From IMG/VR virus record IMGVR_UViG_3300034152_000554: a DNA stretch of 64,000 nt; one strand, written 5' to 3'. Origin of the DNA: an uncultured virus (IMG/VR IMGVR_UViG_3300034152_000554) (lineage: Duplodnaviria; Heunggongvirae; Uroviricota; Caudoviricetes). Positions within the stretch are counted from its first letter, which is position 1; every line of letters begins with the position of its first letter. Made by a program: the position numbers and the translations under genes. Positions 20,445 through 52,000 of the stretch are shown here, piece after piece. The notes beneath the pieces were generated by a model. That model saw only the letters and a program-made list of their open reading frames with translations. It did no database searches and was not told the DNA's origin.

Positions 20445-20476
20445 AAAACACGACAAACTGTATTAATAATATATAA
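20445..20476. repeat. 32-bp dispersed direct repeat, copy 1
   Basis: aaaacacgacaaactgtattaataatatataa, identical at 43085-43116. Confidence 0.9.
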
Positions 20477-20502
20477 GGGAGCGTGTCAGGTTAAGTGCAG
20501 CC

Positions 20503-25060: not shown

Positions 25061-25405
25061 TTAGGAACCAACCGGGAACGATGGGGCCATTGTTGGAAAT
25101 GCCCGTTGCTGAGAGTTCCAATCTTCCCATTCCGGCTGTCCATTCGGGCTTGATGCAACTGGCGAACCGCTGCCACCTGTTGTTTCCTGAGCCGGAGGGG
25201 GAGCAGCCCGGAGTGATTCACTGCCACCCGTATCATCAATTATATTGCTGCTGTCAGTTGGCCCCTGGAAATTAGAGCCTGAATTACTAACTCCAATTGC
25301 TTGCTCAAATTGGGGATCAATCGGATCAATGCCCTGGCTTTGGAGTTCACGGTCTAGCAATGCTTTGGCAAACATTTTCTTTCGTTTAGTCTCATCATTA
25401 ATCAC
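25061..25405 (-). CDS. Hypothetical protein
   Basis: GTGA overlap with terL. Confidence 0.65.
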   Translation of the reverse strand: MINDETKRKKMFAKALLDRELQSQGIDPIDPQFEQAIGVSNSGSNFQGPTDSSNIIDDTGGSESLRAAPPPAQETTGGSGSPVASSPNGQPEWEDWNSQQRAFPTMAPSFPVGS

Positions 25406-27840: not shown

Positions 27841-28620
27841 TTACGCTCCCCACGTTCGACGACCAAACGAACGGAATACATTTGCTGCTCTTGCTCCAGT
27901 TGACCGCCTTAAACGATCTTCATCAAACATTGCAGACGTGTTTGTCTTTCGAGTTTCATCACCTTGAGTCCTAATATTCTGGCGAGTTTGAGTGCCAGTC
28001 TCCTGGATACCCTCTCGCTGTAAGACTCTCTGGTTTCTGAAATCTTGATCTCGCAGTTGAGTTTCAAATCCGAAGTCTTGCTCGTTTAAGCCTCGCTGTT
28101 GCTGGTAGCGCTGCTCAGACAATTGGGTTTCAAATCCAAACCGTTGCTCGCCTAACCCTCGCTCTTGTTGATAAGCTTGATCGGACAGCCTACTCTGGAA
28201 GCCAAATGCCTGTTCATTTAAGCCTCGCTGCTGTCCATACGCCTGGTCAGATAGTTTACTTTGGAAACCAAAATCTTGTTCGTTCAGTTGTCGCTGCTGT
28301 TGAAATGCCTGGTCATTTAAGCCCAACTGTTGTTGATAGCTTTGCGCTCCCAGTTGCAATGCACTATCAAGAGCCTGGTTAGCCTGCCATCTTGAAAGTT
28401 GTCGATCACGTTTATTTTCTTTCTTGTTAAATCGAGACTCCCATTTGATTTCTCGCTCCCGCTGTTCAGCATAGAAATCACGATCTTCAACAGACCATTC
28501 CCGTGCCTGCTTGACCCCTTCCATCGCATCTTCTCTGGCTTGAGAAGCAGATGAACTGCCAAACAGTCCACTAACGATTGAAGATACCCCTGAAATAGCT
28601 GGAGCAATCCATCCTGCCAT
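27841..28620 (-). CDS. DNA-pilot-like ejection protein with hendecad repeats
   Basis: Gly/Ser hydrophobic N-terminus; ten Q-rich 11-aa repeats. Confidence 0.65.
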   Translation of the reverse strand: MAGWIAPAISGVSSIVSGLFGSSSASQAREDAMEGVKQAREWSVEDRDFYAEQREREIKWESRFNKKENKRDRQLSRWQANQALDSALQLGAQSYQQQLGLNDQAFQQQRQLNEQDFGFQSKLSDQAYGQQRGLNEQAFGFQSRLSDQAYQQERGLGEQRFGFETQLSEQRYQQQRGLNEQDFGFETQLRDQDFRNQRVLQREGIQETGTQTRQNIRTQGDETRKTNTSAMFDEDRLRRSTGARAANVFRSFGRRTWGA

Positions 28621-31008: not shown

Positions 31009-31956
31009 TTAACGTCGCCAGAGTGCTGCCAGGAAACTTCGATGGTTGGCAGTATCTCCAAGCCAGCGGTCAAGCTGGAATTGGGCATTTTCAGATTGGC
31101 GATTCATTGACGCATATTCCATTCCTTGCTGGTGATTTTGGGCTGACGCCTGAGATGCCCGTTCAAAGTTGTTTTGAGCTTGCTGTTCTCTTCCTTGAAA
31201 AAGAGCCGAATCAGGATTAAATAGCTGGTCAAGAATTTCCCGATCAGTTAATGCCCGGTCTTCCTGGGATTCATACGATCTCAGGGGAGGTTGAGTTGGC
31301 TGTGCTGCTCCTGGATTGGCAAATGGATTTGTTGCAACAGTCGATGCAGGTAGTTGTGGATTGTTGGGATTGTTGCTGGTTGCCGGTTGAGTTTCAATCC
31401 TGCGAGTTGGGGGTAATCCAGCATTTGTCCGGCCTATATTCTCAGCCGCTCCAGCATTACTAAATGCTGGTGGGGTATTAGGAACTTGAGGGGTCTGGTT
31501 TCTGTAATTGCCTTCTCGCAGCCTGTTAAAGTAATCTTCAATTTCAGGGCGAGTCACTGAGCGATCAGTAATTCGGTTGCTGGTGATTGAACTCCAATCG
31601 TTCCAATCGGCCCCAGAATCAATGAACTCCCAGTGCAGGTGGGGGCCAGTTGAATTGCCGGTGCTGCCCTGAGTGAAAATGTAATCTCCTGCATTGACGC
31701 GATCGCCAACACTATAAGGAGATTCCTCATTTCCGTGAGCCATAAATACAGACCTTCCAGTTTCAGCATCGCGGACTGCAACAGTATGTCCATAGCCATT
31801 GACCCAATCATCCCAAACAATCTCGCCAGTGTAGGGAGAGGGTACAGAAACATACTGATTGCCATCAAGGTCAATCGTAAAATCGTAAGCTCCCCCAGGA
31901 GAATCATCAATCAGGTATGGGGTATGGACTTGGTAGCGATTGGGTGTGCTGGACAT
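31009..31956 (-). CDS. M23 peptidase-domain protein (virion-associated peptidoglycan hydrolase)
   Basis: GYGHTV...MAH...VGDRVNAGD...GSTGNSTGPHLHWEF. Confidence 0.9.
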   Translation of the reverse strand: MSSTPNRYQVHTPYLIDDSPGGAYDFTIDLDGNQYVSVPSPYTGEIVWDDWVNGYGHTVAVRDAETGRSVFMAHGNEESPYSVGDRVNAGDYIFTQGSTGNSTGPHLHWEFIDSGADWNDWSSITSNRITDRSVTRPEIEDYFNRLREGNYRNQTPQVPNTPPAFSNAGAAENIGRTNAGLPPTRRIETQPATSNNPNNPQLPASTVATNPFANPGAAQPTQPPLRSYESQEDRALTDREILDQLFNPDSALFQGREQQAQNNFERASQASAQNHQQGMEYASMNRQSENAQFQLDRWLGDTANHRSFLAALWRR

Positions 31957-33859: not shown

Positions 33860-36775
33860 TTAGAAAATCTCCAATTGGGAGGGCTGGTTATCAATTTCAT
33901 AATTTAAAGGGGTGATCAATCGGTTAAGTCGATTTCGATTGAGCCGTTTAATCGCTTGATACCCTAACCCTATCGTAGCAGCGGAGGCAGCTAATCCAAT
34001 TGGATTGATCCTAAATCCCATGATTTGTGCTTCATACTGTCGTGGATCTAATGGATGAGCATCTTGAGGTGCAGCAATCGAGTCATCAGTTGCCCGGATC
34101 AGGCCATCCATTAATTCAATACCTTGATTACCCCAGAGGTATTCTTGATAGTCTCGATAATGTTCATAGGGTACTTCAGGGCGCTCTTTGCGAAACTCTT
34201 CCCAGGGCAATAAATAGGACGATTGCCCGGTAAACAATGCCATTGTTGTTGCTAATGGATAGTTCTGAGTAACGGTTGGGTTTTCATAGGTTGAACGCAA
34301 TGCCCGATAGCCTTCCGGTCGTGGCCCTTCTTCGGTATTAAATAAGTTACCAAGATCAACGTTGCCAGAACCAACCGATAAAGCAATCATGCCGGGTACT
34401 GCCAGGAATGGTTTGTACTTATTAATATCAGCCCGGAGATAGGTTGGCGGATCGACAGCCTGTTTTGTTACATAAGGCGTTATCTGAGTTTGAACAACAT
34501 CGCCAGGGTGAGATCGCCACAGGTATTTCATTGTTCCGTGTGACCATAAATCCCCTGCCAGTGCGCCAATTGTGCTACCAACGCCAGAGAGTCCACTATC
34601 AAGAATGTCTCTCAATCGTGGGGAGTCTGGCCCTTGCGCTTGAGTGAGCCAGTCAGATAACTGCCTGAGTGACAGTCGTGGTGCAATGTTGCTCATTGCC
34701 AACTGGTCATTGAGCTTTTGCACATCACGCTGGCGATCAAGCTGTTCAGGTAGCAACATTGTCAGGATTGAGCGGCCATGCTCACCCCGGTTCTTGATTG
34801 GGAATGCACCAGTTCCCCATTCCCAACCGGCCTGGAATGCACCCTTTAAGTTCTCAAGTGCTGTCCGGCTATGGTATTTGAGTGCTTCTGGATTATCAGG
34901 AGAAGGATATTCGCTGCCAGGAAATGTACCCTGGACTTCAAGCGATCGAGCATCAACAACATAGGTGTTGCCATCACCGCCAATGATTTCCAGAGTAGGA
35001 TTTTTGCCGCCGCCACCCCGATACCAGTGCAGTAGCCGATCAATCTTATAGGCTTCATTGAGTCGTGCTTTATATGCTGGCTCTGATTCGCCAGGTCGTT
35101 TTGGCCCCATAAATGCAGCTTTTTGGTCAAGATCCATAAACTCATAAGCATTGATCTTGCCAACCAATTCTCTGGCTTGAGGCATTGTTAGCGGAGCCAA
35201 AGCGTCCCAGTTGGGGACAATCTGCATTGCATCATCACTCCAGCGAGGCAGTTTCTCGCCAGTCCTACGAGCTTCATCTTCTACCCAGGGTTGATACTTT
35301 CCGCGTCTGATTGGTTCATAGCGGAAGTCTTCAGGACTATCATCGCCTGATCTGGTGGGAGGAATATAAGGCGGATCAAGTCTGTTAAGTTCTGTAAAGA
35401 ATCGAGTTGATAGTTCTTCAGGTGGTCTACCCCGTTCAGATTGAGGGTACTTTTTCCTGGCAAACATTTCATTTGCATCAGGAATACCTCTGATTGGTTC
35501 ACCTTTTTTCCAGGCAGCAATAATGTCCCTATCTGTATATGGGGCTTTATCGTAAGGTGCAGGGAATAGAAAATCAGGTCTATTGGGCAGATCGCTAGAT
35601 GGCAACCCTGCTGCGGAGTAATTGAGAATGATGTCATTAGCACGAATGCGTGCTGCATCTCGCTGTGCGCCAATTTGATCTCGTTGACGTTTTAGCTCTC
35701 CCAGTATCGCTTTTTGATGTTTGCCCAACATACTAAAGCGCTGAGGGTGATTGCTGTCGAGATTATGTTCACGCCGAAACTGAACATAATCAGCACTGGC
35801 TTTTTGGTATTCATGCTCTAACAAACGATACTGCTCAACATAATCTAATGCCATTGCAGCATCCTGTTCAGGCGTGTTCCTGAACCTGACAAAAGGCTCT
35901 TTACCTTTTCCCTGTGAACCTGGATCATTGTTGCCAGGAGGGGGTGGCTGTCGTGGTGGCTGTCGTGGTGGGCCTTGTGGAGGTTGTCCTGCTCCCATAT
36001 CTGGCTTGGTCTGTAGCCTGGGAGGTTCTGCTTGCTGAGGTCTTTGGGGAGTTGGTGCTGGCTGTTGAACTGGTGCTGGTTGCTGAGTTTCAGCAGCAGG
36101 CGTGCTGCCAACAGTTCTGACCTTCTCACTTAAATTTATTTTGGGATAGCGTTGCGGCTCTGCTGTTGATCTGGGAATTGCTCCAGCCGGATCAACATCA
36201 AGTCCTGATACCATTTGCCTGGTGTAAAGCCTATTGGTAACAGTGTTATTAATTGGCGGTTCAGAATCAATTGACGACCTGATATTGGGTTCAGGCTGTT
36301 GACGGGTTTGCGGAACTGCTCCCAATTCTGGAGGGGGAGTCGTTGGTGCAGGAGTTGTCGGTTCAACTCGACTTAAGCCACTGGTCAAATTGGTTAACCG
36401 AGTTGGTTCTGTTGTTGATCTGGGTACAGCATTGGCAGGTGGCTCTTGAGGTGCAGGTGGCTGTTGAGATATAGGCTGCTGTTGAGGTGCAGGCTGTCGA
36501 TTAGATTGCTGTTGGCGAGGTGGTCGCTGATAAGGCTTATTGCCAGATGCCCGCTTCTTTCGGCTACGTGCCATACTCGGTCGTGCCTGTTGAGCTACTT
36601 GCTGGGGGTCAATCCTTCGGCGAGATAGCTCCTGCATCACAGCAGGTAGGTACTCTGCTTCTGACTGGTCGATTGACATTGCTTGCCATGCCCGAACAAG
36701 ATCATTGTCCGGGATTACATCAATCGATGATGCCTGAGTTTGCCTGAAAAGGTTCGCAAGGATTCGGCTTGCCAT
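33860..36775 (-). CDS. Large internal virion/ejection protein
   Basis: 971 aa, P/Q-rich N-half; C-terminal PEGY...LLPWEEF..ERPEV..E.Y..Y domain recalled from S-EIV1-like phages. Confidence 0.65.
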   Translation of the reverse strand: MASRILANLFRQTQASSIDVIPDNDLVRAWQAMSIDQSEAEYLPAVMQELSRRRIDPQQVAQQARPSMARSRKKRASGNKPYQRPPRQQQSNRQPAPQQQPISQQPPAPQEPPANAVPRSTTEPTRLTNLTSGLSRVEPTTPAPTTPPPELGAVPQTRQQPEPNIRSSIDSEPPINNTVTNRLYTRQMVSGLDVDPAGAIPRSTAEPQRYPKINLSEKVRTVGSTPAAETQQPAPVQQPAPTPQRPQQAEPPRLQTKPDMGAGQPPQGPPRQPPRQPPPPGNNDPGSQGKGKEPFVRFRNTPEQDAAMALDYVEQYRLLEHEYQKASADYVQFRREHNLDSNHPQRFSMLGKHQKAILGELKRQRDQIGAQRDAARIRANDIILNYSAAGLPSSDLPNRPDFLFPAPYDKAPYTDRDIIAAWKKGEPIRGIPDANEMFARKKYPQSERGRPPEELSTRFFTELNRLDPPYIPPTRSGDDSPEDFRYEPIRRGKYQPWVEDEARRTGEKLPRWSDDAMQIVPNWDALAPLTMPQARELVGKINAYEFMDLDQKAAFMGPKRPGESEPAYKARLNEAYKIDRLLHWYRGGGGKNPTLEIIGGDGNTYVVDARSLEVQGTFPGSEYPSPDNPEALKYHSRTALENLKGAFQAGWEWGTGAFPIKNRGEHGRSILTMLLPEQLDRQRDVQKLNDQLAMSNIAPRLSLRQLSDWLTQAQGPDSPRLRDILDSGLSGVGSTIGALAGDLWSHGTMKYLWRSHPGDVVQTQITPYVTKQAVDPPTYLRADINKYKPFLAVPGMIALSVGSGNVDLGNLFNTEEGPRPEGYRALRSTYENPTVTQNYPLATTMALFTGQSSYLLPWEEFRKERPEVPYEHYRDYQEYLWGNQGIELMDGLIRATDDSIAAPQDAHPLDPRQYEAQIMGFRINPIGLAASAATIGLGYQAIKRLNRNRLNRLITPLNYEIDNQPSQLEIF

Positions 36776-37191
36776 TGACTGTGCCCTATAGTGCTACTTC
36801 TATTCTGGCACTTTGCAAGAAAACAATAGAATTTTGGGTACAGATATATATGAGGGCTATAGATTTTGAGGGTACTTCTATAGGTACACGTATATCAGGG
36901 GGGCTTCGTTATACTACTATATATATCAAATCCCTCATTAAAAAAGGGTTTGAGGCTTCTGGCGATCGCACCTTTCCTCTCAGTGGGGCGTGGCTGGCTT
37001 CGCACCATCATCGCTGGCGCTCGCGTTCGCAGAGCGAACGCTCGCTCTCGCCGCTTCGCGGCTCGGGAGCCACCTGGAGGCGATCGCACTTAGTTCTACC
37101 GCATCTCGCTCTTAGACACTCTGCACTTGATTCTGAGAGCTACTTAATTGCCTTCGGCAATCAAGGAAGTGTAGAGTTCAGACACACACAC

Positions 37192-37428
37192 ATGACAGCT
37201 ACACAATCACAAGTCGAAGCCGTAACGTTTCTGTTCGAGCTGGCATTCGGCTTCCAGCCGCATACCATCTCTTGCGACGAGAACAGTATTGTCGCTGTCT
37301 CCAGCGATGAGATGTCCTTCGCAGACATTGACCGGAAAACGGGATGCGTCGGCATCGCCGACGTGGAACAGGGCTGCTGGTCATTTGCGTCTGTCGCAGA
37401 CGCATACGCCTGCATAGAAGGAATCTGA
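37192..37428 (+). CDS. Cassette ORF, hypothetical (78 aa)
   Basis: ATG after the half element; weak resemblance to 38631/38938. Confidence 0.7.
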   Translation: MTATQSQVEAVTFLFELAFGFQPHTISCDENSIVAVSSDEMSFADIDRKTGCVGIADVEQGCWSFASVADAYACIEGI

Positions 37429-37502
37429 TCGTATTCCCGAAGGGCATTAGGTAGCCCTTCGGGAATTATTTCATTGAAGTTTAGCCCACCAAGGAGGGCG
37501 TA

Positions 37503-37907
37503 ATGAGTTACGATACCGCAATGGCGCTGTGTGACAGCGCCGTGCAGTGGATCGCAATCGCTACGGCGATCCACTTCGCACTGACGGTAGTGGCCGCCGT
37601 TACAAGGCCGCTACCGCAGCCTGCTCCGCAGCCTGCTCCGGAACCGGAACTGGAACCGGAACCGCAGCAACCACAGCAGGCGATCGCGCCCATCAGCTTG
37701 GCCTACGAGCCGAGCTTCCCTGCCGTAGCAGTCATCCCCGTGGGGATGACTGCAGCTACGGTTTCAGTTCCCAAAGCCCAGGCGATCGCAGCAGCCTGGG
37801 GATCAACCGTCAAGGAATTGCGGCAACAGTGCCGCGACCAGGGCATCCGGGTTCCCAAGGGAACCAGGAAGGCAGGGCTAGTCGCCTTGCTCGTACAGGG
37901 GGCATAA
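37503..37907 (+). CDS. Cassette ORF with N-terminal hydrophobic helix and C-terminal Rho-N/HeH-like domain
   Basis: AAGGAGG RBS; TVKELRQQCRDQGI...RKAGLVALL. Confidence 0.75.
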   Translation: MSYDTAMALCDSAVQWIAIATAIHFALTVVAAVTRPLPQPAPQPAPEPELEPEPQQPQQAIAPISLAYEPSFPAVAVIPVGMTAATVSVPKAQAIAAAWGSTVKELRQQCRDQGIRVPKGTRKAGLVALLVQGA

Positions 37908-38003
37908 GCCCCCACTCCAGGTATCCATACCCCCGAAGGGCTACCTAATGCCCTTCGGGAATTATCAACATTGAAGTTTTAGCCCAAAGGAGGGCGTTGT
38001 CTT

Positions 38004-38222
38004 ATGTTGTATTACGTGGAAATGCTGGCTGTAAGCTGCGGTGGTAACTCGTCTATTTTCTTAGACGAGTACGTCACCCATCTGCCACCTCACCCACCGG
38101 GTGAGAAGCAGACTATTCAGCGGGAAGGCGACCCCAGCTCAGGGGTCTTCGTCACAAAAGTTTGGGCGATCCCGCCCGAAGAGGAATCGGACTACGATGA
38201 TGTCAAATACATCGATCCGTAG
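38004..38222 (+). CDS. Cassette ORF, paralogue A1
   Basis: AAGGAGG RBS; MLYYV...DEYVT.LPPH. Confidence 0.8.
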   Translation: MLYYVEMLAVSCGGNSSIFLDEYVTHLPPHPPGEKQTIQREGDPSSGVFVTKVWAIPPEEESDYDDVKYIDP

Positions 38223-38318
38223 TTTCTTCATTCCGAAGCTCGTCATCCCGAAGGGTTGCGTAATGCCCTTCGGGAATTTTTCTCATTGAACTTTTTAGCC
38301 CGAAGGAGGCTTTCAACG

Positions 38319-38534
38319 ATGCTGTACTACGTCTGCGAGTACGAAGTAACTGCAAACGGGACGACTCACCTCAGAGATGAGTCTGTCACCGAGTTTCCGC
38401 CACACTATTCAGGCGATCGCGCAGTGCCCGCCCAGGGCTACCCTGGGGGGAAAATCGTTACGTCCGTGATACGGATCAACGACGCCGACAAGTCGGAATA
38501 CTCCGACTTAATCCCTACCAGACGCAGTTGGTAG
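38319..38534 (+). CDS. Cassette ORF, paralogue A2
   Basis: AAGGAGG RBS; MLYYV...DESVT.FPPH. Confidence 0.8.
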   Translation: MLYYVCEYEVTANGTTHLRDESVTEFPPHYSGDRAVPAQGYPGGKIVTSVIRINDADKSEYSDLIPTRRSW

Positions 38535-38630
38535 GATTAGGCGATCGCACCGTGACTGCTTTCCCGAAGGGCTACCTAATGCCCTTCGGGAATTATTGGC
38601 GCTGAACTTCATCAGCCCAGGAGGGCAGTC

Positions 38631-38852
38631 ATGAGCAAGTCATTCTTCCGTTTCATTCTAGAAAGTTGGTTCGCTTCCCACCTCATCGAGGTCGGAGAAA
38701 GCAATAACCTGATCGTCGCCCGAGTAGAACCGGGCACGTTCGTGGTTTTCAACCAGGCTGATAACAACATCACTGTCATGACTCCGACTTGCAGCCGGAC
38801 TTGCTCCGACATGCAGGAGTTCATAGGAGCCGTTGACCACCTCATTTTTTAG
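38631..38852 (+). CDS. Cassette ORF, paralogue B1
   Basis: AGGAGG RBS; FRFILE..F...LIEVGES...VARV...TFV. Confidence 0.8.
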   Translation: MSKSFFRFILESWFASHLIEVGESNNLIVARVEPGTFVVFNQADNNITVMTPTCSRTCSDMQEFIGAVDHLIF

Positions 38853-38937
38853 AGGCGATCGCGCCCGTATTCCCGGAGGGCTACCTAATGCCCTTCGGGA
38901 ATTATTGGTGTTGAACTTTAGCCTAAAGGAGGCAACG

Positions 38938-39174
38938 ATGAGCAAAACTATTGGCATGAAGGGCATGTTTCGGCTAATTCTCGAAGCCCGGTTTGAACCG
39001 GAGCTAATCGAAATTGGCGAAAGCCATAGCCAAATGGTTGCGAGGGTCGGAAAGGAGACCTTCGTAATCTACGACAAGCATGTTTCGAGTCTGACAATTA
39101 TCACCCAAGTCCACACTGAAGCGTGCTATGGGCTTGAAGACTTTCTTGAATCCTGCGATCGCATCCTTCCGTAA
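38938..39174 (+). CDS. Cassette ORF, paralogue B2
   Basis: AAGGAGG RBS; FRLILE..F...LIEIGES...VARV...TFV. Confidence 0.8.
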   Translation: MSKTIGMKGMFRLILEARFEPELIEIGESHSQMVARVGKETFVIYDKHVSSLTIITQVHTEACYGLEDFLESCDRILP

Positions 39175-39259
39175 GGCGATCGCACCGCACCTGTCTTCCC
39201 GAGGGGCTACTTAATGCCCTTCGGGAATTTTTTCAGGTGTTCTTCGTTGAGGCAACACT

Positions 39260-39502
39260 ATGCAGACTTTTCCATGCGTTGACTACCCTTGCTACGTACC
39301 CGCAGTTGATCCGAGCAACTGCGCCCTCGGCTGGTACGTGGTCAGATACGCAAACGGAAGTGCAGGTATCGCCTGCCTTCCCAGTATCAACCCGAACGTT
39401 GTGGAGATCCTTGGCGATCGCCACCGCAGCCGGACAGCCGCTCTCGTCGAAGCGGTTGACCTGAACCTGAAAGAGACTATTGCGGACATCCGCAACGCCT
39501 AG
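39260..39502 (+). CDS. Cassette ORF, hypothetical (80 aa)
   Basis: GAGG RBS after the element. Confidence 0.7.
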   Translation: MQTFPCVDYPCYVPAVDPSNCALGWYVVRYANGSAGIACLPSINPNVVEILGDRHRSRTAALVEAVDLNLKETIADIRNA

Positions 39503-39733
39503 TCTCTCCGCCACCTGTCACCCCCAAGGGCTACTTAATGCCCTTCGGGGGTTTTTCCAGGTGAATTTTCAAAGGAGGGAGGGGGACGATAAGGCACTGC
39601 CAACGGTAAGGATGGGGCGGCGATCGCCCTGCCAACGACACCCAATCCCCTCTCTCCCAGTTGCGTGTCTTCCCGAAAGGCTACTTAATGCCCTTCGGGA
39701 ATTATTGCAGTTGAAGTTTCTCAAGGTCACATT

Positions 39734-40399
39734 ATGACTACTTCCAACAATTCCAAGTCCGAGTCCAACATCCCCGTTGCCCCCGAGAAACCTCGTTGGG
39801 TGCAATACGAGTTCGTCGCTCGGCAAGACTGCCGCAACCCCGAAGCGTATGCAAGCACCGTTCTTCGGAACGGGGGCTGGGCTGACCTGTTTACGAATGA
39901 AGAAGGATCGCCCTACGGGGTGATTCCTGGCTGTCGCGAGGGGAACCTCGTGGTTGCCGTATACGTGAACAGCCACATTGCGCGGCAATACGAGGCTGAA
40001 CTCGCTGATGCGTTGTCCCGGAATCGGGCAGTGCCAGTCTACCACCCGGAACTGACAGGTGAAGAAGAGACTGAACCATACAGCGTCTTTTTCGTGGGCG
40101 GCACAGCCCGCCACCTCCTGCGGATCGTAAAGGGGCTTGACGGGAAGCGGCCGATTGTAGGCCAACTCATGTCTGGCAACAGCCAGCTTGTCAACAAACT
40201 GGTCGGCTATGTGTACGGCAAGCAGCCGACATCCCCGACCATGCCAAGCCTCGGCAGCCTGACCATGGCTGGAACGCCTAGCGACGGGCAAGCCACTGAG
40301 CGCCCGATTCCCCCGGCTGACGCTAAGCCCAAGACCCGCAAGGGTCGGAAGCCAGCGGCAGCCAAGAAGCAGCAAGCCGTTGACGACCTGCAATTTTGA
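39734..40399 (+). CDS. Cassette ORF, hypothetical (221 aa) with DDLQF tail
   Basis: Follows the last full element; disordered basic C-terminus ending in an acidic-Phe tip. Confidence 0.75.
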   Translation: MTTSNNSKSESNIPVAPEKPRWVQYEFVARQDCRNPEAYASTVLRNGGWADLFTNEEGSPYGVIPGCREGNLVVAVYVNSHIARQYEAELADALSRNRAVPVYHPELTGEEETEPYSVFFVGGTARHLLRIVKGLDGKRPIVGQLMSGNSQLVNKLVGYVYGKQPTSPTMPSLGSLTMAGTPSDGQATERPIPPADAKPKTRKGRKPAAAKKQQAVDDLQF

Positions 40400-40495
40400 A
40401 GGAGGTGCATAGCAACCGGCCTCAGACCGAAGAGGCCGGTAGTCCGGTGATCGGCTGGCTGATAGTGGTCGGCCTGATTCTGCTATGTATCTGAA

Positions 40496-40544
40496 TGATT
40501 ACCCCTGGGAGGACGTAAGTCCTTTCGGGGGTGATCATTTTTTT
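40496..40544 (+). terminator. Intrinsic terminator closing the cassette array
   Basis: tgattacccctgggaggac-GTAA-gtcctttcgggggtgatca followed by T7. Confidence 0.75.
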
Positions 40545-40637
40545 GGAGCCATTGTGACCTGGCTGCCAACTATAAGAAGGGATAGGGAGACTACCGCCCC
40601 CAGGTCTAGACAGTATCGTCTCCCCAGCCGCGATCGA

Positions 40638-42866
40638 TTATTTGCCTTTCCGTTTAGCCCACTTAATCAGATCAGAGCAGGGACTATACTCAACACCACT
40701 GATAAGGGCATTGAATATGTCCAGGTCTGATAGTGGCTCTGGTTCTGGCTCTACCGTCTGCTCTTGCTGTGCCTGTAAGTGCAGCCGTTTCAGTTGCTCA
40801 ACTGCATTGTTTTTCTTTTCAGTGGACAGCATATCTGCCAACGATAAGCTGGGGCTGTCGATATCTAGCTGGGACACATCGATATTAGACAGAAGGGTCT
40901 TATCAACTCGCTCCCTAAGATCGGGAACGGCATCGAGCAAAGGTTGACATTGCAATTCTGGCAAAGCAATCCCATTTAATAAGATTTGCTTATCTATTAG
41001 CTGGGAATACTCTGCCAGGAAATTGTCCAGCAGGGTAGTCAGTATCGTCCTGCGGGTCAACTCTGGCTCACCATTGCTGCCAGCAATGACCGTTTCCAGC
41101 ATCGCCAAGGGAGAGTTGGGATGCAAAGACGCATCGGCGATCGCTCCTTCCAGGTTATTGTCCAGGATTACCTTGACCCGCAAGACTGATTGCGGAATTG
41201 GAATAAATGCTGGCAAGTAATTGGCTGGGGGATAGTGACCTGACTGCTGCCTGAACTGCCTATAAGCCGAGCGGGCTTCTATAAACCTACTCCAACTCTG
41301 CAATCGGCTAATTGTTCTTGGGCTTGTATCAAGAATTTCAGCAATCTGAGATCGACTGAGGGGGTAAGGCTTGCTTTGTCTGACCCTGATAGATGAAGTG
41401 CTGTTAGCTTTAGCTTCCTTGCGTACCGTCTTTAACAGCTTGCCTAACTGCCTGATCTCCTTTGGCGTTGCAAATGCAACCCTGATGCCATACTCAGCAA
41501 TGATACTGATCAATAATCGATCAATATCCAGATCAAGCTGGTTAACTAAGTAGGTCGTGGCGTTAGCTGAGTAGTTAGTCCTGACTGGGATGCCATCAAT
41601 AGTGGTGCAGGTCGGCTTGTCAGTGTCTTTAAGCGACTGCCAATAAGCTAATGTCCGCTTGCGTCTGCGCTGACTTTCCAGTTGCCTGACAAATTCAACA
41701 ATCTCTTTGGGCTGATTGTTCTGATTGTTGACCGCTTCTGGATAGAGGCAGTTAGTAATTGCAATGCTGAACTGATGCAAGTAGTCTCTTGTCAGTTCTG
41801 ATGCCCGACTGATAAGTTCTGCTGATGTGTCATCGTCATGCAGGTCGAATGACTTTGACTGCTTTGCGGCTGCTGCTGACAACTCAACCGTTGCTTGATA
41901 AAGGTTATCAGTGACCTTATCTTGATAGTCAAGCGTCATCGATAGCAGTGCTTCGATTCGGCTGGCTGGCAGGTTACTGAGTGAGCGGGCAAAACTTTCA
42001 GGCGGACTGTCGTGCTGCCAATACAGTTCTGAGGCAAAAACCAGATCCGGTAATCCCTGTAGACAGACCGTTCTAGCTAGTGGGCAGAGGGCTGAAATCC
42101 ATGCGTATAGCGGGTCTTGCGCGTGGGATAAGATACCCCTCCAGTACATTTTACCGGATGCGGTACCCCTCCAGTACATTTTACCGGATGCTGTAGTAGT
42201 GTCCTGCCAGTCCTCATTACCGGATACCTGTTCACTGCTACTATGCACCCACGTAAATGGCCCACTTCTCCTGCCATCACTGTCAACATAGAGCCGTTGT
42301 CTACTAATCTGATTGCTTAAACCGTAAACAGTGAGCCTATCCCACAAGGGGGCAAACTTTTTGCTCACTGGTATCTTATTTTTTAATGCAAAAATAATTT
42401 GACTAACATTCTCATTACCGGACTCCTGGCTCTCAGCTTCAATGCAGCCAGCACTAACCAGCATCCAATACTGAGAACGATAATCATTCTCATTATTATC
42501 GCTATTACTATTGCTATTGCTATCCTGCTTTGTCTCTTCTTCCTGTTGACACTCTCCCAATATGTCAACAAAGAATGCGACAGCATTCCTATCAATATCT
42601 ACTCGCCTATCAATGCTGCTATCGACAATGCTATCAATCCTATCAGCACTGCTATCACAGTCAGAGAAGCTATCAATACGGCCATTGCTATCAGCAAACT
42701 TATCAGTAACATGCTTGGCTATCTCCTCCTGACTAATCTTCGCACCACCAAGAGTGATATACCAATCATCATACGCTTCAATCGATCGGAAATAAGCACT
42801 CCCATCTTTAGAGGTGGGTCTACCTCTAGACACTCTTGATTTGAATTCCTTATCAATTCTATCCAT
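40638..42866 (-). CDS. Large hypothetical HTH protein, possibly a divergent sigma-70-like factor
   Basis: 742 aa; LSRSQIAEILDTSPRTISRL HTH; 30-bp tandem duplication TASGKMYWRG x2. Confidence 0.55.
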   Translation of the reverse strand: MDRIDKEFKSRVSRGRPTSKDGSAYFRSIEAYDDWYITLGGAKISQEEIAKHVTDKFADSNGRIDSFSDCDSSADRIDSIVDSSIDRRVDIDRNAVAFFVDILGECQQEEETKQDSNSNSNSDNNENDYRSQYWMLVSAGCIEAESQESGNENVSQIIFALKNKIPVSKKFAPLWDRLTVYGLSNQISRQRLYVDSDGRRSGPFTWVHSSSEQVSGNEDWQDTTTASGKMYWRGTASGKMYWRGILSHAQDPLYAWISALCPLARTVCLQGLPDLVFASELYWQHDSPPESFARSLSNLPASRIEALLSMTLDYQDKVTDNLYQATVELSAAAAKQSKSFDLHDDDTSAELISRASELTRDYLHQFSIAITNCLYPEAVNNQNNQPKEIVEFVRQLESQRRRKRTLAYWQSLKDTDKPTCTTIDGIPVRTNYSANATTYLVNQLDLDIDRLLISIIAEYGIRVAFATPKEIRQLGKLLKTVRKEAKANSTSSIRVRQSKPYPLSRSQIAEILDTSPRTISRLQSWSRFIEARSAYRQFRQQSGHYPPANYLPAFIPIPQSVLRVKVILDNNLEGAIADASLHPNSPLAMLETVIAGSNGEPELTRRTILTTLLDNFLAEYSQLIDKQILLNGIALPELQCQPLLDAVPDLRERVDKTLLSNIDVSQLDIDSPSLSLADMLSTEKKNNAVEQLKRLHLQAQQEQTVEPEPEPLSDLDIFNALISGVEYSPCSDLIKWAKRKGK

Positions 42867-43084
42867 TATTATAAATATTGATAAGTTTTGCTTATCTCCC
42901 CTACCTGATATCTTGCAACAAAATATCTGATTTTCCTTTGCTTGTCAACCTATTTCCAACCTCATCTTATTGCCAAAATGCATACCTCGACATATTAGTG
43001 CATTTTGGCAACTAAATCTAATTTTGAATTACCTCGACCTGACAGCACTCAAACGTAGACTACACCGTCAGTCTAGCGTTTTTG

Positions 43085-43116
43085 AAAACACGACAAACTG
43101 TATTAATAATATATAA
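43085..43116. repeat. 32-bp dispersed direct repeat, copy 2
   Basis: Identical to 20445-20476. Confidence 0.9.
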
Positions 43117-43290
43117 AGGGTGTCGCGTCGCGCTATTTATTTTCCAAAGCATGGCAAATTTTAATCCCATGTGTCATCCTTGATCTTCTATTAGATAAGG
43201 CCATGCTTAGTACCACATTTGATTTCAAATGTCAACCTTTTTAGCAAACTTCTTAGCAAAGCACTATCAAGAGATAAGGCTTACATTAGA

Positions 43291-43378
43291 CTGTCGTGCT
43301 GACTTGATCTTGAAGCTGTCGTGCTGACCTGATGGGTGACTGCTATCTTCCCATTGACATGCAACTGTCGTGCTTGAT
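43291..43378. repeat. Iteron/operator-like direct repeats ctgtcgtgct(gacYtgat)
   Basis: Copies at 43291, 43316 and 43365 in a ~730-bp divergent intergenic region. Confidence 0.7.
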
Positions 43379-43600
43379 AAAATTAATCAAGTTGACTACT
43401 CTTTTTTGACACAGCAAAGGCAGCTATAAGACAGCACCACCAATATTGACCTGCAAGCAGCCTCAATCTTCTCTGACATCTACCAGCACCCATATCTTCC
43501 CAGACACCCCTAGACGCTTCTCCTTCCCTCCCCTCAGCTTCCCAATGCCCTTCGGGCTATAATCAAATCCTCAAATAGCTAAAGCTTAATAAGGAGTAGA

Positions 43601-43849
43601 TTGATGGCAGAAATAAGACTGATTGACCTGCTGAAAGGCAAAACAATCCTGGAAGTTGAGTGGCTCAGATATCTTGACTACGACGACAAGGGATACTTAC
43701 TACTTGAGTTCCATGATGGAACCAGGGCACTGATAGCAGCCTATCACCAGGGATACACAGCCAAGAGCCGAGATGAGTATCAGACAAATATAAGCGTCAG
43801 TTTCCTTTCTTCAGATGAAGACCTGACTGGCTTCCAGGTAGTCTCTTAA
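43601..43849 (+). CDS. Hypothetical protein
   Basis: AAGGAG RBS; half element aatgcccttcggg at 43544. Confidence 0.75.
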   Translation: MMAEIRLIDLLKGKTILEVEWLRYLDYDDKGYLLLEFHDGTRALIAAYHQGYTAKSRDEYQTNISVSFLSSDEDLTGFQVVS

Positions 43850-43936
43850 AGCTTTTCCCCTCTCTTCTCAGCTTCTTAATGCCCTTCGGGGCATTTCCCC
43901 ATTGCTTTATAACTTAAATACCAAGGAGACTCGATT

Positions 43937-44305
43937 ATGCTTAAGCAACTTGCATACCTGGCCGATGCCATTGCCGACGATATCACGACCGGCCTTAAGG
44001 TGCAGATTGCGCCTAAAGGTTCGTACTTCCTCCGCAACCTGATCAACGAAGAGGTTGATTGGGATAAATTTTTCGTGGTTCTCAAATGGTCGGGGATCAA
44101 GACCGAGAAACACATTAGCTGTCAGAAGCAATTTATCGGAAGGCTAAGTGATCTGTCTGCCTTAGAAGATTGCGGCTTCAAGGTCGAATATCTCATGCTT
44201 GTCCAGCGGGATAACTGGCATCGTCGTTTCTACTTGTACGATGGCGAACTGGATCATTTCTATTCGGTCGCTGAGATCGAGTACAAGAAACCGTTGGGAT
44301 ACTGA
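43937..44305 (+). CDS. Hypothetical protein
   Basis: AAGGAG RBS; half element gcttcttaatgcccttcggg at 43871. Confidence 0.75.
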   Translation: MLKQLAYLADAIADDITTGLKVQIAPKGSYFLRNLINEEVDWDKFFVVLKWSGIKTEKHISCQKQFIGRLSDLSALEDCGFKVEYLMLVQRDNWHRRFYLYDGELDHFYSVAEIEYKKPLGY

Positions 44306-46862: not shown

Positions 46863-46953
46863 ATAGCTCTGATTCCCCCTAACGTATTTCCCCTTAGCCT
46901 CCCGCTGCTTAGTTCCCTTCGGGGGGCTTTTATCTTAAGCTCTTGCTGTAACT

Positions 46954-47823
46954 ATGGAGATCAATTTTATGGAAGACCATATTGACCATATTGAATACAA
47001 AGGGATTGAAGAGCCAGTTAAAGTCCAATACAAAAAGGTTCAGACAGTCTATTGCGTGTTCCAATGGGACTCGAACTATCAGCAGAGCAGCCTGCGAGGT
47101 TGCTATCTGACAAAGCAAGACGCTGAAACTGCAATCGAATCAGGTCTGCATCCTGAAACAAATGATCTGGATGAACCAGCTATCGTCCCAATGTCTGTTC
47201 TTGCCAGAGAAGAGGAAGAAATCGAAGAAGAAGCACAGCAGATGGGGGACTATTCCCCTGTCTTCCGGCATACATACACTAACGGAGGAGTCGGCTACTC
47301 ATGCAACCCCGACAACGGAGTGCGTGGGTTGAACGTCCTGGCTCATTCATCCGAGTGGGAAGACATCATTGCCGAGTGGATCCTCATGAACCAGAAGGGG
47401 ATCAACTTGCAAGGCGATCGCTTCCTCTTTGCAGACGGCAAATTCGTCGTCCATGTCCGGCCAGTCGGCGAATGGCAGCACCCTATGGATCTGCCGCAAG
47501 AGAGAACTAGAGTGGGCTACAGTCGCAATTGCGATCAACAGACCGAGTACGAAGATGGCGAAGTATATGAAGCTGTCTACAGTTCCGACACGGATTACTT
47601 CGTGTTGCCGGATGGTAGCGCAGAGGTTGTCCACACCCGTTCGAGCTGGGACGACGAGAACGATGTCGAAATAATTACGACAACTCACCCCCCTGGGTGT
47701 TGGGAGTTCTACCCCAATGGGGGCGGCAGCTATGGGGGTAAAGCCATCGTGGAGAAATGCAGCCCCGATCAGATTGAAAACTATTTAGTTCTTACAGAGG
47801 AGAAAATCAATGGCGATGATTGA
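46954..47823 (+). CDS. Acidic hypothetical protein
   Basis: 289 aa (start may be 46969); degenerate half element at 46904-46923. Confidence 0.7.
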   Translation: MEINFMEDHIDHIEYKGIEEPVKVQYKKVQTVYCVFQWDSNYQQSSLRGCYLTKQDAETAIESGLHPETNDLDEPAIVPMSVLAREEEEIEEEAQQMGDYSPVFRHTYTNGGVGYSCNPDNGVRGLNVLAHSSEWEDIIAEWILMNQKGINLQGDRFLFADGKFVVHVRPVGEWQHPMDLPQERTRVGYSRNCDQQTEYEDGEVYEAVYSSDTDYFVLPDGSAEVVHTRSSWDDENDVEIITTTHPPGCWEFYPNGGGSYGGKAIVEKCSPDQIENYLVLTEEKINGDD

Positions 47824-49072: not shown

Positions 49073-52000
49073 ATGAGAATCCGTAGAACACTGGCCGATT
49101 TTCAGAACGCATTCAGGCCGGATTCAAGTGGAATTACTGGAGCAGTTCGACCAACTGCGCCAGTCGTGCAGAGTGATAGCCCCAGTCCGGTAGCAAATCC
49201 AGCGAGAGGATGGCGCTTACCAGCATCGTATGAGCGTAGCTCTAGTCCGACCTATCGACCTGTCGTGTCGCTGCGGGGCGGCAGCATGTCAACTCCAGAA
49301 GGGGTGACGCAGGGAATCCCAGTCATGCAGCAGGCACGACTGGCAGATCCTCGCAATGTCGGTATTGTTACCGGCTACCGAGACTTGGCTCGAAGCAATG
49401 ACTTTGCAGGTCGTTTGTCCAACTACGACCAGAGCATTGCAGCACAGCAAGGACAATTATCCAGAGCAGTCAAGCCTAGCGACGTTAGGCGATACACTGA
49501 GAACATTGCCAACATCCGTCGCCGCAGAGAACGGCAAATCAAAGCCGATGCCAATTCGATGCTGGCATCAAAGTCGTTTGAGGGGATCAATCCTCAATCT
49601 GGATTTGGTGTGATGGTACGTCGGTTCGATCAGGATGGCAATGTTATTGTCGGTGCTGATGGTCAGCCGGTATTCGATCTGATCACGCAAACCAGCAGCC
49701 CAACCCAATTGGCTGAAGGACTTAACCTGCAAGTCATTCAGGACAAGGGCGTTAAAGATGCTGGACTGACTCTTTTGCAATTGCCTTCACCGCCACAAGA
49801 TGTAAAGGCAAACATTCGAGCGTTCATTGCCCGCAACGAACCTGGTGCATTGGAGCGGGTATATCAGAAGTCGCGCAGCAACGATCCAGTTGAGCGTGAA
49901 GATGCTCAACGCACCCTTGATAAGCTGCTGACATCAGCAGAAATCATTGAAGCTCCCGATGGGAGTATCAGCACGATGGCAGTTAACGATCGCTGGAACA
50001 GGCTCAATACCAATGAAGCCCTGGCAGCAGCGTTACTGCGTCCTAAGAAGGAAGGATCGGGTTTATTTACCCGTGCTGATTTGATGCTGTCTAGACAACA
50101 GCAAGACCAACGCTTTGCTGATGGTATTCAAACACTGACCCCTGACGTGGCAGCACAGTATCAGTATGTTGAGCCGCTGGAGTCTGTGACTGAAGCCTAC
50201 TCTCGCAACATTGGCTCAGGGGATATTGCATACCGACCTGATGCTCGGCTCGATGCCACGACTGGAATCTTCCCTGATATTGAAGGCCAGAATGACTACC
50301 GGGAAAGCTTACGGGCATACGGAATGCAGCCCGTTGATCGGATCGTTTCAATTACTCCGATCGAAGTTAAACGGGCGGCGGATCTGTTTGACCCGATCTA
50401 TACCGAACGGCTAAAGATTACGAAGAATCTACCTGAAGAAGAGAGGACTTATCTTCGAGACATCAATAACCAGGATGTCTACGAAGAACTGGCTGAACAG
50501 CTTTACACTAGTGGCTATGCTGAAACACCACAAGAAGCATACCGAGTTATGGATGTGATGCGGGAATACCGCAATGCAGTTCCCTGGGAGAACCGGGTAG
50601 AGCCAGGGTTAGAGTATGACGGCAAGAAGCTGGTCAAGGTCTATCCGACTGCTGGTGAATACGCAGCAGCAATGCGACCTTACTATCCAGCAGGGTTTAA
50701 CCCACCATCAAGGGGTCTGGATACTACTGGATTTGCTGAACAGCAACGAAACCTGGAGCGGATTGGCTTTGAGGTTTTCTCAGGCCAGCAGGAAATCGGC
50801 ACTGATCCTGACTCAATTGCATTTCGGGTTAGCAGTGAGCAAGATTTTAATAGGCAGCGTCCAGAGCTAACTGAGTCTGGCTACGAGCAGACAATTAACT
50901 ACGACTCAGGACTTCCGGCTGAGTTTGCCAGTCCAGCCAGGTTATCACTACCTGCAAGCCTCAATCCAGCTAATCGACCTGCACCCCTCAGCCCAGCACA
51001 GGCGGATCTGGTATCGAGCCTGCCTGCTATCCGGCAAGGAATCAAAACAGCAGAGCTTGAAGGCAACTTGCCAGAAGCCGCACGACTAAGAAGGATGCGG
51101 GATGAGGCGATTGCTCTTGAAGCAAGTACCGCAGGCTACGATCGCACTGAACCAGTTGATGTTGATCCGGCATTTATTGGTTTACAAATGCACCGGGGCG
51201 GGTTTAACTATGTGCCTGATGCAGCGGCGGGATATGCTGCGATCAGGGGCATGGATAGCGGCTTTATTCCAGGGCATCTCTCAGCCAGCGGTCAACCTGA
51301 AGCCCGGATGGCAGTCAGAACAGCGCCACCAGCAGGCAATATCGATCCTGATAGTCCAGCCTATCTGATGGGGTACGGTGAATATGATCAGCGACGGCTG
51401 GCTGAGAATCGAGCAATGCCATCTGAGTCCGTTCGTGAAGTCTACCCACTAGCTGATGACAGAACTCTTGGATTCAATCGCCTAATCCTGGGATCGTCAC
51501 CGGGCGAGAATGATTACCCAATCCGCAGGCAGGTTGGAGCAATCAATCCATTCCAGGTGCAGAACCTAACACCGAGTGGTTATACCGGCCAGTCTCTATT
51601 GTTTAGCCGAAACATGGAGACGCCTGTTGGCCGTTACAATCCTCGCAACTACATGGCTAACCCTGAATTTGGAATGGTTGATGGCACACTGGCCCGTGAG
51701 ATGTCAGTTGTACCAACGATGCCCAGAGGAGATGGATACATTGCTCCAATCAATTTCTTACGACAAGCTACTGACGCTCACAATCCAGCAATTGAACGGC
51801 TGCGTACCAGGATTGCCGAAGCTGAGCAGGCTGGCGAAATGACACGGGTAGAAAACCTGGAAAACCTGCTTGGCGGTGAAGTCCAGGAGCTTGAAAAGAA
51901 ACTTGACTACGCATTGAGAGCGATGGGTACAAACCCAGAGCAAATCGGCAATGCGTCTGATATCAACCGGATCGTTGCCAGTCGTGCAATTGTTGATCGC

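Follow-up and report, generated by a model that had tools for sequence, protein, structure and literature searches.

A 64,000-nucleotide stretch of DNA from an uncultured virus (IMG/VR record IMGVR_UViG_3300034152_000554), called the window below, is a tailed-phage genome or prophage and contains a plus-strand operon of small orphan genes that are separated by copies of a palindromic hairpin, each followed by a conserved leader. Hairpin and leader were read as a module that punctuates the transcript of this operon and is duplicated together with its gene, comparable to the promoter-early stem-loops (PeSLs) of T4-type phages or to the start-associated sequences (SAS) and extended start-associated sequences (ESAS) of Cluster K mycobacteriophages, and this reading was given an even chance. 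An earlier note on the same DNA had interpreted the palindromes as recombination sites of an integron-like or loxP-like cassette array and had named a repeated promoter or a site acting at the RNA level as alternatives. The results described here fit those alternatives better than the recombination reading.

The earlier note had counted eight full copies of the palindrome. A search of the window with the 28-nt pattern CCCGAAGGGCTACYTAATGCCCTTCGGG and up to 3 mismatches gave exactly 8 matches, while 0.00 were expected from 100 shuffles. The copies, U1 to U8, follow each other at distances of 496, 315, 316, 309, 326, 324 and 150 bp (starting positions are listed in Table 1), which agrees with the spacing of about 150 to 500 bp given before. 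The arms of 10 to 13 bp around an 8-nt core were also confirmed in all eight copies, and the arm-core geometry is that of loxP and FRT sites. The elements are near-perfect palindromes of the form TTCCCGAAGGGC-N8-GCCCTTCGGGAA and consist of a pair of inverted mini-hairpins, CCC-GAA-GGG and CCC-TTC-GGG, that flank a short spacer. Three core variants occurred among the eight copies: TACCTAAT in four of them, once inverted, TACTTAAT in three and TGCGTAAT in one. Some pairs of neighbouring elements have the same core and others have different cores. The core of U1 is exactly inverted, with 33 nt being 100% complementary to the copy at 38561. The leader and ORF2 (ORF, open reading frame) behind U1 are in the normal orientation, and the loop alone is flipped. 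Palindromic hairpins, as in chloroplasts, can flip by exchange within the palindrome or by template switching.

All eight hairpins are intergenic. The seven that follow the stop codon of an ORF begin 5 to 26 nt past it, while U8 follows an empty unit, and for the seven hairpins with a downstream ORF the distance from the end of the hairpin to the next ATG is 32 to 42 nt. Fold energies of U1 to U8 were between -18.0 and -24.6 kcal/mol, and each of these hairpins formed in every context fold (z between -2.3 and -6.1). In U7 the outer pairs are changed from UA to CG on both sides. The T-rich tails are on the sense side only: within 8 nt past the stem the plus strand of U1 to U8 has 5, 3, 6, 4, 5, 6, 5 and 4 T, compared with 2, 3, 1, 1, 1, 1, 1 and 0 on the minus strand. 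The tails were also scored with a weighting for terminator tails. The scores were between 3.33 and 5.09; all eight were above the 95th percentile of the window (3.19), and four were above the 99th percentile (3.97). Two obvious terminators of the window reached 4.58 and 4.04, values comparable to those of the elements. The elements thus have the G/C-rich stem-loop and U-rich tail by which intrinsic terminators are recognised, in sense orientation and just past a stop codon. The strand of action was additionally examined by means of wobble pairs, but 3 changes were G.U-compatible on the plus strand and 2 to 3 on the minus strand, which is not informative.

The island of small genes is itself closed by two hairpins, the second of which is the strong terminator at 40494-40545. 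This terminator aligns with the element, which it resembles in its loop and right arm. When the arm pair CCCGAAGGG...CCCTTCGGG was searched with any loop in IMG/VR, 25 loci were found. There was one hairpin per locus in 25 of 25 cases and no array among them, and about half of these loci have A-rich or T-rich flanks as are typical of terminators.

The conserved unit is not the palindrome but an asymmetric 20-mer, GCTNCYTAATGCCCTTCGGG, comprising the core and the right arm. A search for this 20-mer, together with a direct-repeat search of the whole window, revealed 12 copies, where none was expected. In addition to U1 to U8 these are U0 at 37139 in front of ORF1, and E9 (43537), E10 (43871) and E11 (46904), which belong to the next plus-strand operon and precede the ORFs at 43601, 43937 and 46954. 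Eleven of the 12 copies are in sense orientation, the exception being the flipped U1. Four copies (U0, E9, E10 and E11) lack a perfect 12-bp left arm and have kept the asymmetric half, its orientation and its position before a gene. Three of these four nevertheless fold by other pairings: U0, with a decayed left arm, by a small hairpin formed by the right arm itself (-11.5 kcal/mol; the fold of the wider region was not significant, z -1.33), and E10 and E11 as given in Table 1. It is therefore the hairpin that is kept, and not a 13-8-13 recombinase site. A leader of the type CATTG...TTTA is common to E10 as well. Directly after E9 there is a perfect TATAAT (43558-43563), and a near-consensus sigma-70 promoter (TTGACA-18-TAAAAT, 11 of 12 positions) lies about 150 nt upstream, which places E9 inside the predicted 5' untranslated region. 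A covariance model built from the eight units and run over the window with filters off returned the eight copies and their reverse images only, the next best hit having an E value of 0.29. U0, E9 to E11 and the final terminator were not recovered by this model and were found by the direct-repeat and 20-mer searches.

The leader behind the hairpin corresponded only in part to its earlier description. The first part, AATTWTT...TGAA, is present in seven of the eight copies and consists of AATTWTT, a variable stretch of 5 to 7 nt and TGAA(G/C)TTT (7/8). The AGCC(C/T) that had been described in front of the Shine-Dalgarno sequence occurs in just five of eight units, where it forms the block AGCC(C/T)-N0-4-AAGGAGG(G)C. 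A ribosome-binding site of the AGGAGG type, previously called usual, was found in six of eight. In U1 to U5 a small GCC(C)/(G)GGC hairpin holds the Shine-Dalgarno sequence in its loop, 5 to 9 nt before the start codon.

That hairpin, leader and ORF are duplicated as one unit, as had been proposed, is borne out by two pairs of paralogous genes, which are adjacent and in which homology extends from the hairpin into the first codons. ORF5 and ORF6 (38631/38938) are paralogues by BLASTP (E=1e-18, 36% identity). BLASTP gave no alignment of ORF3 with ORF4 (38004/38319); their paralogy is supported by a local alignment score of 92 as compared with 23.5+-4.5 for shuffled sequences, 0 of 2000 shuffles reaching the score. 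Third codon positions are near saturation in the paralogue pairs, with only 32% and 34% identity. The 34-nt hairpins of these pairs are identical at 28 of 34 (82%) and 32 of 34 (94%) positions and their leaders at 67% and 69%, and the mean pairwise identity of all eight 34-nt hairpins is 87%. The hairpins are thus conserved beyond the neutral level, and selection on the sequence, gene conversion or both are needed to account for this. Covariation cannot decide between selection and gene conversion.

ORF1 was considered as a further paralogue of ORF5 and ORF6 and was rejected, as 234 and 207 of 2000 shuffles reached the respective scores; it is not significantly similar to any other ORF of the array. 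None of the eight ORFs had a match in Pfam, PHROGs, NCBIfam or PADLOC, and the early, host-takeover or anti-defence role that the earlier note had suggested for them is a guess. ORF2 has a helix-hairpin-helix-like stretch, recognised by eye only, at its C-terminus. The AlphaFold2 model of ORF5 was confident (predicted local distance difference test, pLDDT, 89.2) and showed a small alpha-beta5-alpha domain. This model had no PDB match at E<=0.001, and a comparison with BFVD gave weak matches only, to small uncharacterised phage proteins (E 0.02-0.05). A profile of ORF5 and ORF6 retrieved nothing credible from 1.84 billion representatives; it returned the window's own ORF6 with a longer upstream start, a 24-residue fragment and three repetitive proteins, the Pfam matches of which look spurious. 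ORF8 matched itself alone among 5.8 billion clusters, and its structure model was poor (pLDDT 49.5). The one contig recorded as encoding ORF8 has 96,261 bp and is presumably the present one, in which case the window would cover about two thirds of it.

The earlier note had mentioned one unit without an ORF, and this is indeed the case for the unit at 39520. Here the Shine-Dalgarno sequence is followed by ATA where the siblings have ATG, by a stop codon after six codons and then by a HIP1 site, the same one that follows ORF4 to ORF6. The empty unit, which has kept both flanking hairpins, is probably the remnant of a decayed cassette. As both hairpins are still there, the gene appears to have decayed internally and not to have been excised from site to site.

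The HIP1 octamers (GCGATCGC) of the window indicate a cyanobacterial host. The array is a hot spot for them: 11 of the 19 octamers lie inside 2.7 kb (36962-39627), and several are placed between a stop codon and a hairpin. Of seven control octamers, six did not occur in the window and one occurred twice. The G+C content at third codon positions (GC3) was 0.56 to 0.68 in all eight ORFs of the array and 0.30 to 0.60 in 25 other ORFs of the window. The array is therefore a compositional island, and it looks host-like or separately acquired.

From these features the following course of events can be proposed. The hairpin just past each stop codon, with its U-rich 3' tail, would serve as a leaky intrinsic terminator or attenuator, and once a 3' end has formed at the hairpin, the upstream cistron would also be protected. 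The A/U-rich linker behind it is probably single-stranded, and with its conserved UGAA block it is a plausible site for endonucleolytic processing. The Shine-Dalgarno sequence following the linker would be the translation-initiation part of the module. The whole unit of hairpin, leader and ORF would spread by tandem duplication, and selection, gene conversion or both would maintain its uniform sequence. As a by-product, the repeated homology of 60 to 70 nt may drive unequal homologous crossover and hence gene duplication and loss, as in PeSLs. Such a crossover between modules would need no dedicated recombinase, and PeSL-like homologous recombination between the repeats is plausible.

Several observations weigh against a role as transcript punctuation. 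A loop of 8 nt is long for a terminator, and a simple terminator scan, for which this loop size is the upper limit, accepted only four of the eight elements. The sequences of core and arms are more conserved than a purely structural role needs. Covariation was minimal, with 1 compensatory pair, 3 G.U pairs and 93.8% of cells paired, and 159 of 500 shuffles reached the score. In the inner 10 nt the right arm shows 0 changes and the left arm 5 different substitutions, and the invariant right arm may indicate a factor that reads the right half in a sequence-specific manner. U0 and E9 precede the first genes of their operons, where there is no upstream cistron to be terminated. A lower stem, which would make U5 to U8 two-tier hairpins of the type cleaved by RNase III, was also considered and was dropped, because duplexes of cognate flanks gave -6.8 kcal/mol on average and those of non-cognate flanks -5.6 kcal/mol on the plus strand.

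Of the systems known from other phages, PeSLs are similar in several respects. In the parts of the reports that describe the motif, PeSLs are a combination of stem-loop and promoter motifs that extends from the stop codon to the ATG in front of orphan genes, terminator and promoter activities as well as minicircles from exchange between neighbouring motifs were demonstrated, and the authors likened PeSLs to integrons (Arbiol et al. 2010, PMC2839356; Comeau et al. 2014, PMC4122927). As far as these descriptions go, both elements have a G/C-rich stem-loop (in PeSLs often GGGG...CCCC and acting as terminator or attenuator) plus a Shine-Dalgarno sequence, both are composite motifs repeated before small orphan genes in a plastic region, and in both the repeats offer homology for the gain, loss and duplication of genes. 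In contrast to PeSLs, the sigma-70 -35/-10 pair that defines the promoter part was not found here; the hairpin is longer (12 to 13 bp with an 8-nt loop) and its sequence far more uniform, and the host is probably a cyanobacterium and the phage unrelated to T4.

The SAS of Cluster K mycobacteriophages is a 13-bp sequence, about half of the copies of which are preceded by imperfect 17-bp inverted repeats with a spacer of 4 to 13 nt (ESAS), and in the sections that deal with them the function of SAS and ESAS is given as unknown (Pope et al. 2011, PMC3203893). Judged from this account, the SAS is likewise a conserved sequence that embraces the Shine-Dalgarno sequence a few nucleotides before the starts of some non-structural genes, and SAS and ESAS also occur in one orientation, are private to a group of phages and have one arm better conserved. 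In the element described here it is the right arm that is better conserved, and the arms of the inverted repeat match almost perfectly across a constant spacer of 8 nt; unlike the SAS, its Shine-Dalgarno block is less uniform and its copies are clustered in one operon, while the SAS is spread over half a genome. The SAS consensus as published (GGGATAGGAGCCC), 3 to 8 nt before start codons, was not found in the array, and the analogy is functional only. As the element lacks the sigma-70 pair of PeSLs and differs in sequence from the SAS, it would work like both and is a member of neither.

In the early region of T7, RNase III processing hairpins are located between the cistrons, and the upstream message retains the hairpin at its 3' end. 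These sites resemble the element in that hairpins of one family separate successive cistrons of a polycistronic phage operon. They differ in that the stems are of 12 to 13 bp here, that a lower stem in some units has no statistical support, and that the RNases of the hosts differ. Intergenic modules that are conserved and accompany small orphan genes are among the few recognisable "grammar" elements of plastic phage regions, and only a handful of kinds, namely PeSLs and SAS/ESAS, have been described so far. With 12 copies of the motif and eight near-perfect hairpins, the present family stands out as an exceptionally clean case within an otherwise uncharted lineage of cyanophages. Should graded termination or processing take place at the hairpins, these would reveal how a cyanophage adjusts the levels at which the accessory genes of an island are expressed relative to one another, and would provide compact, portable regulatory parts for cyanobacteria. 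A new principle would be involved only if the recombination reading were true.

The main alternative, though rather unlikely, is that each module carries a phage-specific promoter of its own and that the left arm in the array merely adds an insulating terminator for the preceding gene, a combination of terminator-insulator and promoter that is exactly the logic of PeSLs. The 20-mer would then be at about -32 to -13, AATTAT or AATTTT would be a weak -10 element, and the G of TGAA 7 to 8 nt further on would be the start. A phage factor would have to read the motif, a candidate being the neighbouring 742-aa ORF with a helix-turn-helix (HTH)-like stretch. Such a promoter would explain why an asymmetric half and not a palindrome is common to all 12 copies, and why the right arm is invariant and the left arm variable. 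U0 and E9 are at the heads of their plus-strand operons in divergent intergenic regions, and E9 is directly followed by the perfect TATAAT. After GGG, seven of the eight array units have a hexamer in which position 2 is A and position 6 is T, the only unit without it (U7, with GGTTTT) is the dead cassette, and the variable 5 to 7 nt between the hexamer and the conserved TGAA are a discriminator-like spacing. The 742-aa ORF, which lies between the two operons bearing the motif, gave sub-threshold HTH hits (residues 495-524, E 0.03-0.17) and weak feature hits in the Atlas to clusters of sigma-70 regions 3 and 4 (r3/r4; 0.75-0.78, below the bar of 0.9). However, a -35-like element is missing, and a promoter scan of the window detected no sigma-70-type promoter in any unit. 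E10 and E11 have no -10-like hexamer at the corresponding offset, E9 already has the near-consensus sigma-70 promoter upstream, and the flipped core of U1 would disrupt or reverse the motif, yet the leader of ORF2 is normal. No gene for an RNA polymerase or a sigma factor was recognised in the window, and a T-rich stretch past a GC-rich hairpin can equally well be the tail of a terminator. The palindromes could also be DNA operators for a dimeric phage regulator that binds between genes and silences or times the whole island, for example during lysogeny, in the manner of mycobacteriophage stoperators, of which the L5 precedent is mentioned in PMC3203893. This is quite improbable. Palindromic symmetry suits a dimer, core and arms are conserved well beyond structural need, and the phage may be temperate, as it has an integrase. 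Conservation of the arms is unequal, with 5 changes in one and 0 in the other over the inner 10 nt, and this speaks against a dimer that binds DNA symmetrically; the half-site centres are separated by about 20 bp, an unusual distance for HTH dimers. Moreover, in four of 12 family members the perfect left arm is gone and the position is kept, the sense orientation and the asymmetry of the tails on the sense strand are not required of operators, and no repressor was identified.

The reading of the earlier note, in which the palindromes are loxP- or FRT-like sites and a tyrosine recombinase excises, inserts, inverts and reorders one-gene cassettes as in a miniature integron, has very little probability. 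The geometry is genuine, with perfect inverted arms of 12 to 13 bp and an asymmetric, A/T-rich 8-bp core, one core is inverted, and the cassette-like units include pairs of paralogues. HIP1 sites, which flank several of the cassettes, were implicated in plasmid recombination in Synechococcus in the passage of PMC9239245 that concerns them. A tyrosine recombinase is in fact encoded at 7620-8732, as had been stated (Pfam Phage_integrase, 1.1e-11). This enzyme is a generic integrase, however: its best NCBIfam hit, XerA_Arch, had 26.8 bits at a cut-off of 220, and none of the integron-integrase models was reached. It is the only tyrosine recombinase of the window and lies at a distance of 29 kb, and the element is not found near it. 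The elements have no dedicated recombinase adjacent to them and keep a fixed position relative to stop and start codons; only the geometry is shared with loxP and FRT. Three core variants occur, with some neighbours having the same core and others not, and core heterology would block Cre-type exchange. Four of 12 family members are without the perfect left arm, the tails are strand-specific, and orientation follows transcription. The dead cassette (39553-39669) kept both its sites and appears not to have been lost by site-to-site excision, and in U1 the core alone is flipped and not the leader or ORF, which fits inversion of a hairpin loop better than site-specific inversion. With integrons the array has in common one promoterless-looking ORF per unit, palindromic separators and, as in chromosomal integrons, homogeneous repeats. 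attC sites are imperfect palindromes with R''-L''...L'-R' boxes (RYYYAAC / GTTRRRY) and extrahelical bases. Neither GTTRRRY nor RYYYAAC was found at the ends of the elements, there are no extrahelical bases, and IntI and an adjacent attI or Pc are lacking; the upstream region 36776-37191 has a weak sigma-70-like match only. Unlike attC, the element is also separated from the ORF by a conserved leader and Shine-Dalgarno sequence. The integron-like and loxP-like interpretation is therefore not supported, and integron-like shuffling without IntI or attC, by the phage integrase or a host Xer-like enzyme and with inversion through the site at 37433, has an equally slight chance. Least probable of all, the hairpins would be small selfish palindromes inserted in the spacers, like the repetitive extragenic palindromes REP and REPIN or the small dispersed repeats of cyanobacteria. 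The two inverted mini-hairpins around a short spacer and the host-like composition of the island with regard to HIP1 sites and GC3 would be in keeping with this. The copies are confined to two plus-strand operons with 11 of 12 in one orientation, however, and a conserved leader with its Shine-Dalgarno sequence accompanies every copy. No transposase was present among the ORFs scanned, and the distribution of the motif in other genomes also argues against a mobile repeat: a 22-mer of the element had 0 matches in 185,579 species genomes and 0 in IMG/VR, and an 18-mer matched 38 loci in metagenomes, all of them single matches in unrelated contexts and none with the left arm.

A comparison of 36800-40600 with 50,697 phage records by blastn gave no match. 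Searches of viral contigs with ORF8 and the 971-aa neighbour, and of viral and genome contigs with the portal-like protein, did not yield a relative either. The sole recognisable relative is Synechococcus phage S-EIV1, the portal-like proteins being 35% identical. In S-EIV1 (KJ410740.1, 39.7-45.0 kb) a syntenic run of 11 small genes with long spacers diverges from the structural module. No comparable palindrome family was detected in this region, which has few two-copy motifs, such as a 34-nt repeat at 4466 and 4760 of the stretch examined. Rfam gave no match for the window at the gathering threshold, and 36700-40700 had none at E<=1.

The array, an island of eight small plus-strand ORFs (37192-40399), lies between the structural module and the minus-strand 742-aa ORF (40638-42866). 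The coordinates of all features are given in Table 1.

Table 1. Motif copies, genes and other features of the window
Feature	Position	Strand	Remarks
U0, decayed full copy (GCTACTTAATTGCCTTCGGC)	37139..37158	+	3 mismatches to the 20-mer; 34 nt before ORF1
U1, 13-8-13 palindrome with inverted core	37433..37466	+	-24.3 kcal/mol; CCCGAAGGGCTACYTAATGCCCTTCGGG match on the - strand
U2, hairpin, 10 bp paired	37930..37961	+	-22.5 kcal/mol
U3, hairpin, variant core TGCGTAAT, one U.G pair, T5 tail	38245..38276	+	-21.6 kcal/mol
U4, hairpin	38561..38592	+	-24.6 kcal/mol
U5, hairpin, 13 bp, one G.U pair	38869..38902	+	-24.4 kcal/mol
U6, hairpin, one G.U pair, T6 tail	39196..39227	+	-24.3 kcal/mol; tail score 5.09
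U7, hairpin, one C.C mismatch, T5 tail	39520..39551	+	-23.1 kcal/mol
U8, hairpin, one A.C mismatch	39670..39701	+	-18.0 kcal/mol
E9, asymmetric half without left arm	43537..43556	+	1 mismatch; about 45 nt before first gene of next + strand operon
E10, own hairpin AAUGCCC-UUCG-GGGCAUU	43871..43897	+	0 mismatches; -10.4 kcal/mol; between ORFs 43601-43849 and 43937-44305
E11, diverged copy, other pairing register (AGCCUCCCG/CGGGGGGCU), T-rich tail	46896..46928	+	2 mismatches; -15.4 kcal/mol; before ORF 46954-47823
ORF1, 78 aa, orphan	37192..37428	+	no clear Shine-Dalgarno sequence; GC3 0.62
ORF2, 134 aa, orphan	37503..37907	+	hydrophobic N-terminus, proline/glutamine (P/Q)-rich linker
ORF3, 72 aa, paralogue of ORF4	38004..38222	+	shuffle test
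ORF4, 71 aa, paralogue of ORF3	38319..38534	+	shuffle test
ORF5, 73 aa, paralogue of ORF6	38631..38852	+	BLASTP
ORF6, 78 aa, paralogue of ORF5	38938..39174	+	BLASTP
ORF7, 80 aa, orphan	39260..39502	+	no hits in the searches made
Empty unit	39553..39669	+	Shine-Dalgarno sequence, ATA in place of ATG, stop six codons on, HIP1 site
ORF8, 221 aa, orphan, last gene of operon	39734..40399	+	matched only itself
First hairpin past ORF8, without T run	40412..40447	+	-19.3 kcal/mol
Strong intrinsic terminator closing the operon, 20-bp stem and T7	40494..40545	+	-35.0 kcal/mol
Weak sigma-70-like promoter candidate, CTGGCA-16-TAGAAT, 9/12	36805..36832	+	consensus match only; divergent intergenic region upstream of array
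Generic tyrosine integrase	7620-8732		Pfam Phage_integrase 1.1e-11
Structural module	about 8.9-36.8 kb	-	includes head, portal-like, terminase and peptidase genes
Major head protein	18968-20017	-	structural module
Portal-like virion protein	22586-25027	-	structural module
Large terminase	25402-26976	-	structural module
M23-type peptidase	31009-31956	-	structural module

Some further observations were made in the window. Within the leader of the array, a GC-rich segment of about 118 bp (36961-37089) is bounded by the direct repeat GGCGATCGCAC; it had no Rfam match and could be an insertion or a structured RNA. The 971-aa ORF adjoining the array has a long P/Q-rich N-terminal region, and the 742-aa ORF contains an internal 30-nt tandem duplication (42126-42185). 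For the latter and for a 1462-aa protein no PDB sequence match was obtained; in the Atlas, the 742-aa protein had leads below 0.9 only and the 1462-aa protein had no usable hit.

The near-consensus promoter upstream of E9 (43354-43383) heads the right-hand plus-strand operon. Two exact copies of CTGTCGTGCTGAC are located 25 nt apart within 43291-43383, and a third copy, matching at 10 of 13 positions, lies in the spacer of this promoter, TTGACA-18-TAAAAT. The arrangement looks like an operator/promoter switch. A 40-nt repeat occurs with 93% identity in two intergenic regions, at 20440-20479 and 43080-43119. The copy at 43080 contains a promoter-like TTGAAA-17-AATAAT, and the repeat is possibly a promoter common to both regions that belongs to another temporal class.

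In-frame tandem repeats were present in three minus-strand ORFs, with a 45-nt unit in a 516-aa SLT-like protein (57087-57311), a 66-nt unit in a 259-aa ORF (28054-28338) and an 18-nt unit in a 472-aa ORF (22126-22233). The 1462-aa ORF (49073-53461, plus strand) is situated 3' of the gene for a single-stranded DNA-binding protein (SSB) and had no match in Pfam, PHROGs, NCBIfam, PADLOC, PDB sequences, tblastn of phages or the Atlas; it is possibly the replicase of this phage lineage. The last gene of the right-hand operon (53480-55204, plus strand) encodes a protein of 574 aa that contains a NADAR domain (Pfam, 7.7e-14).

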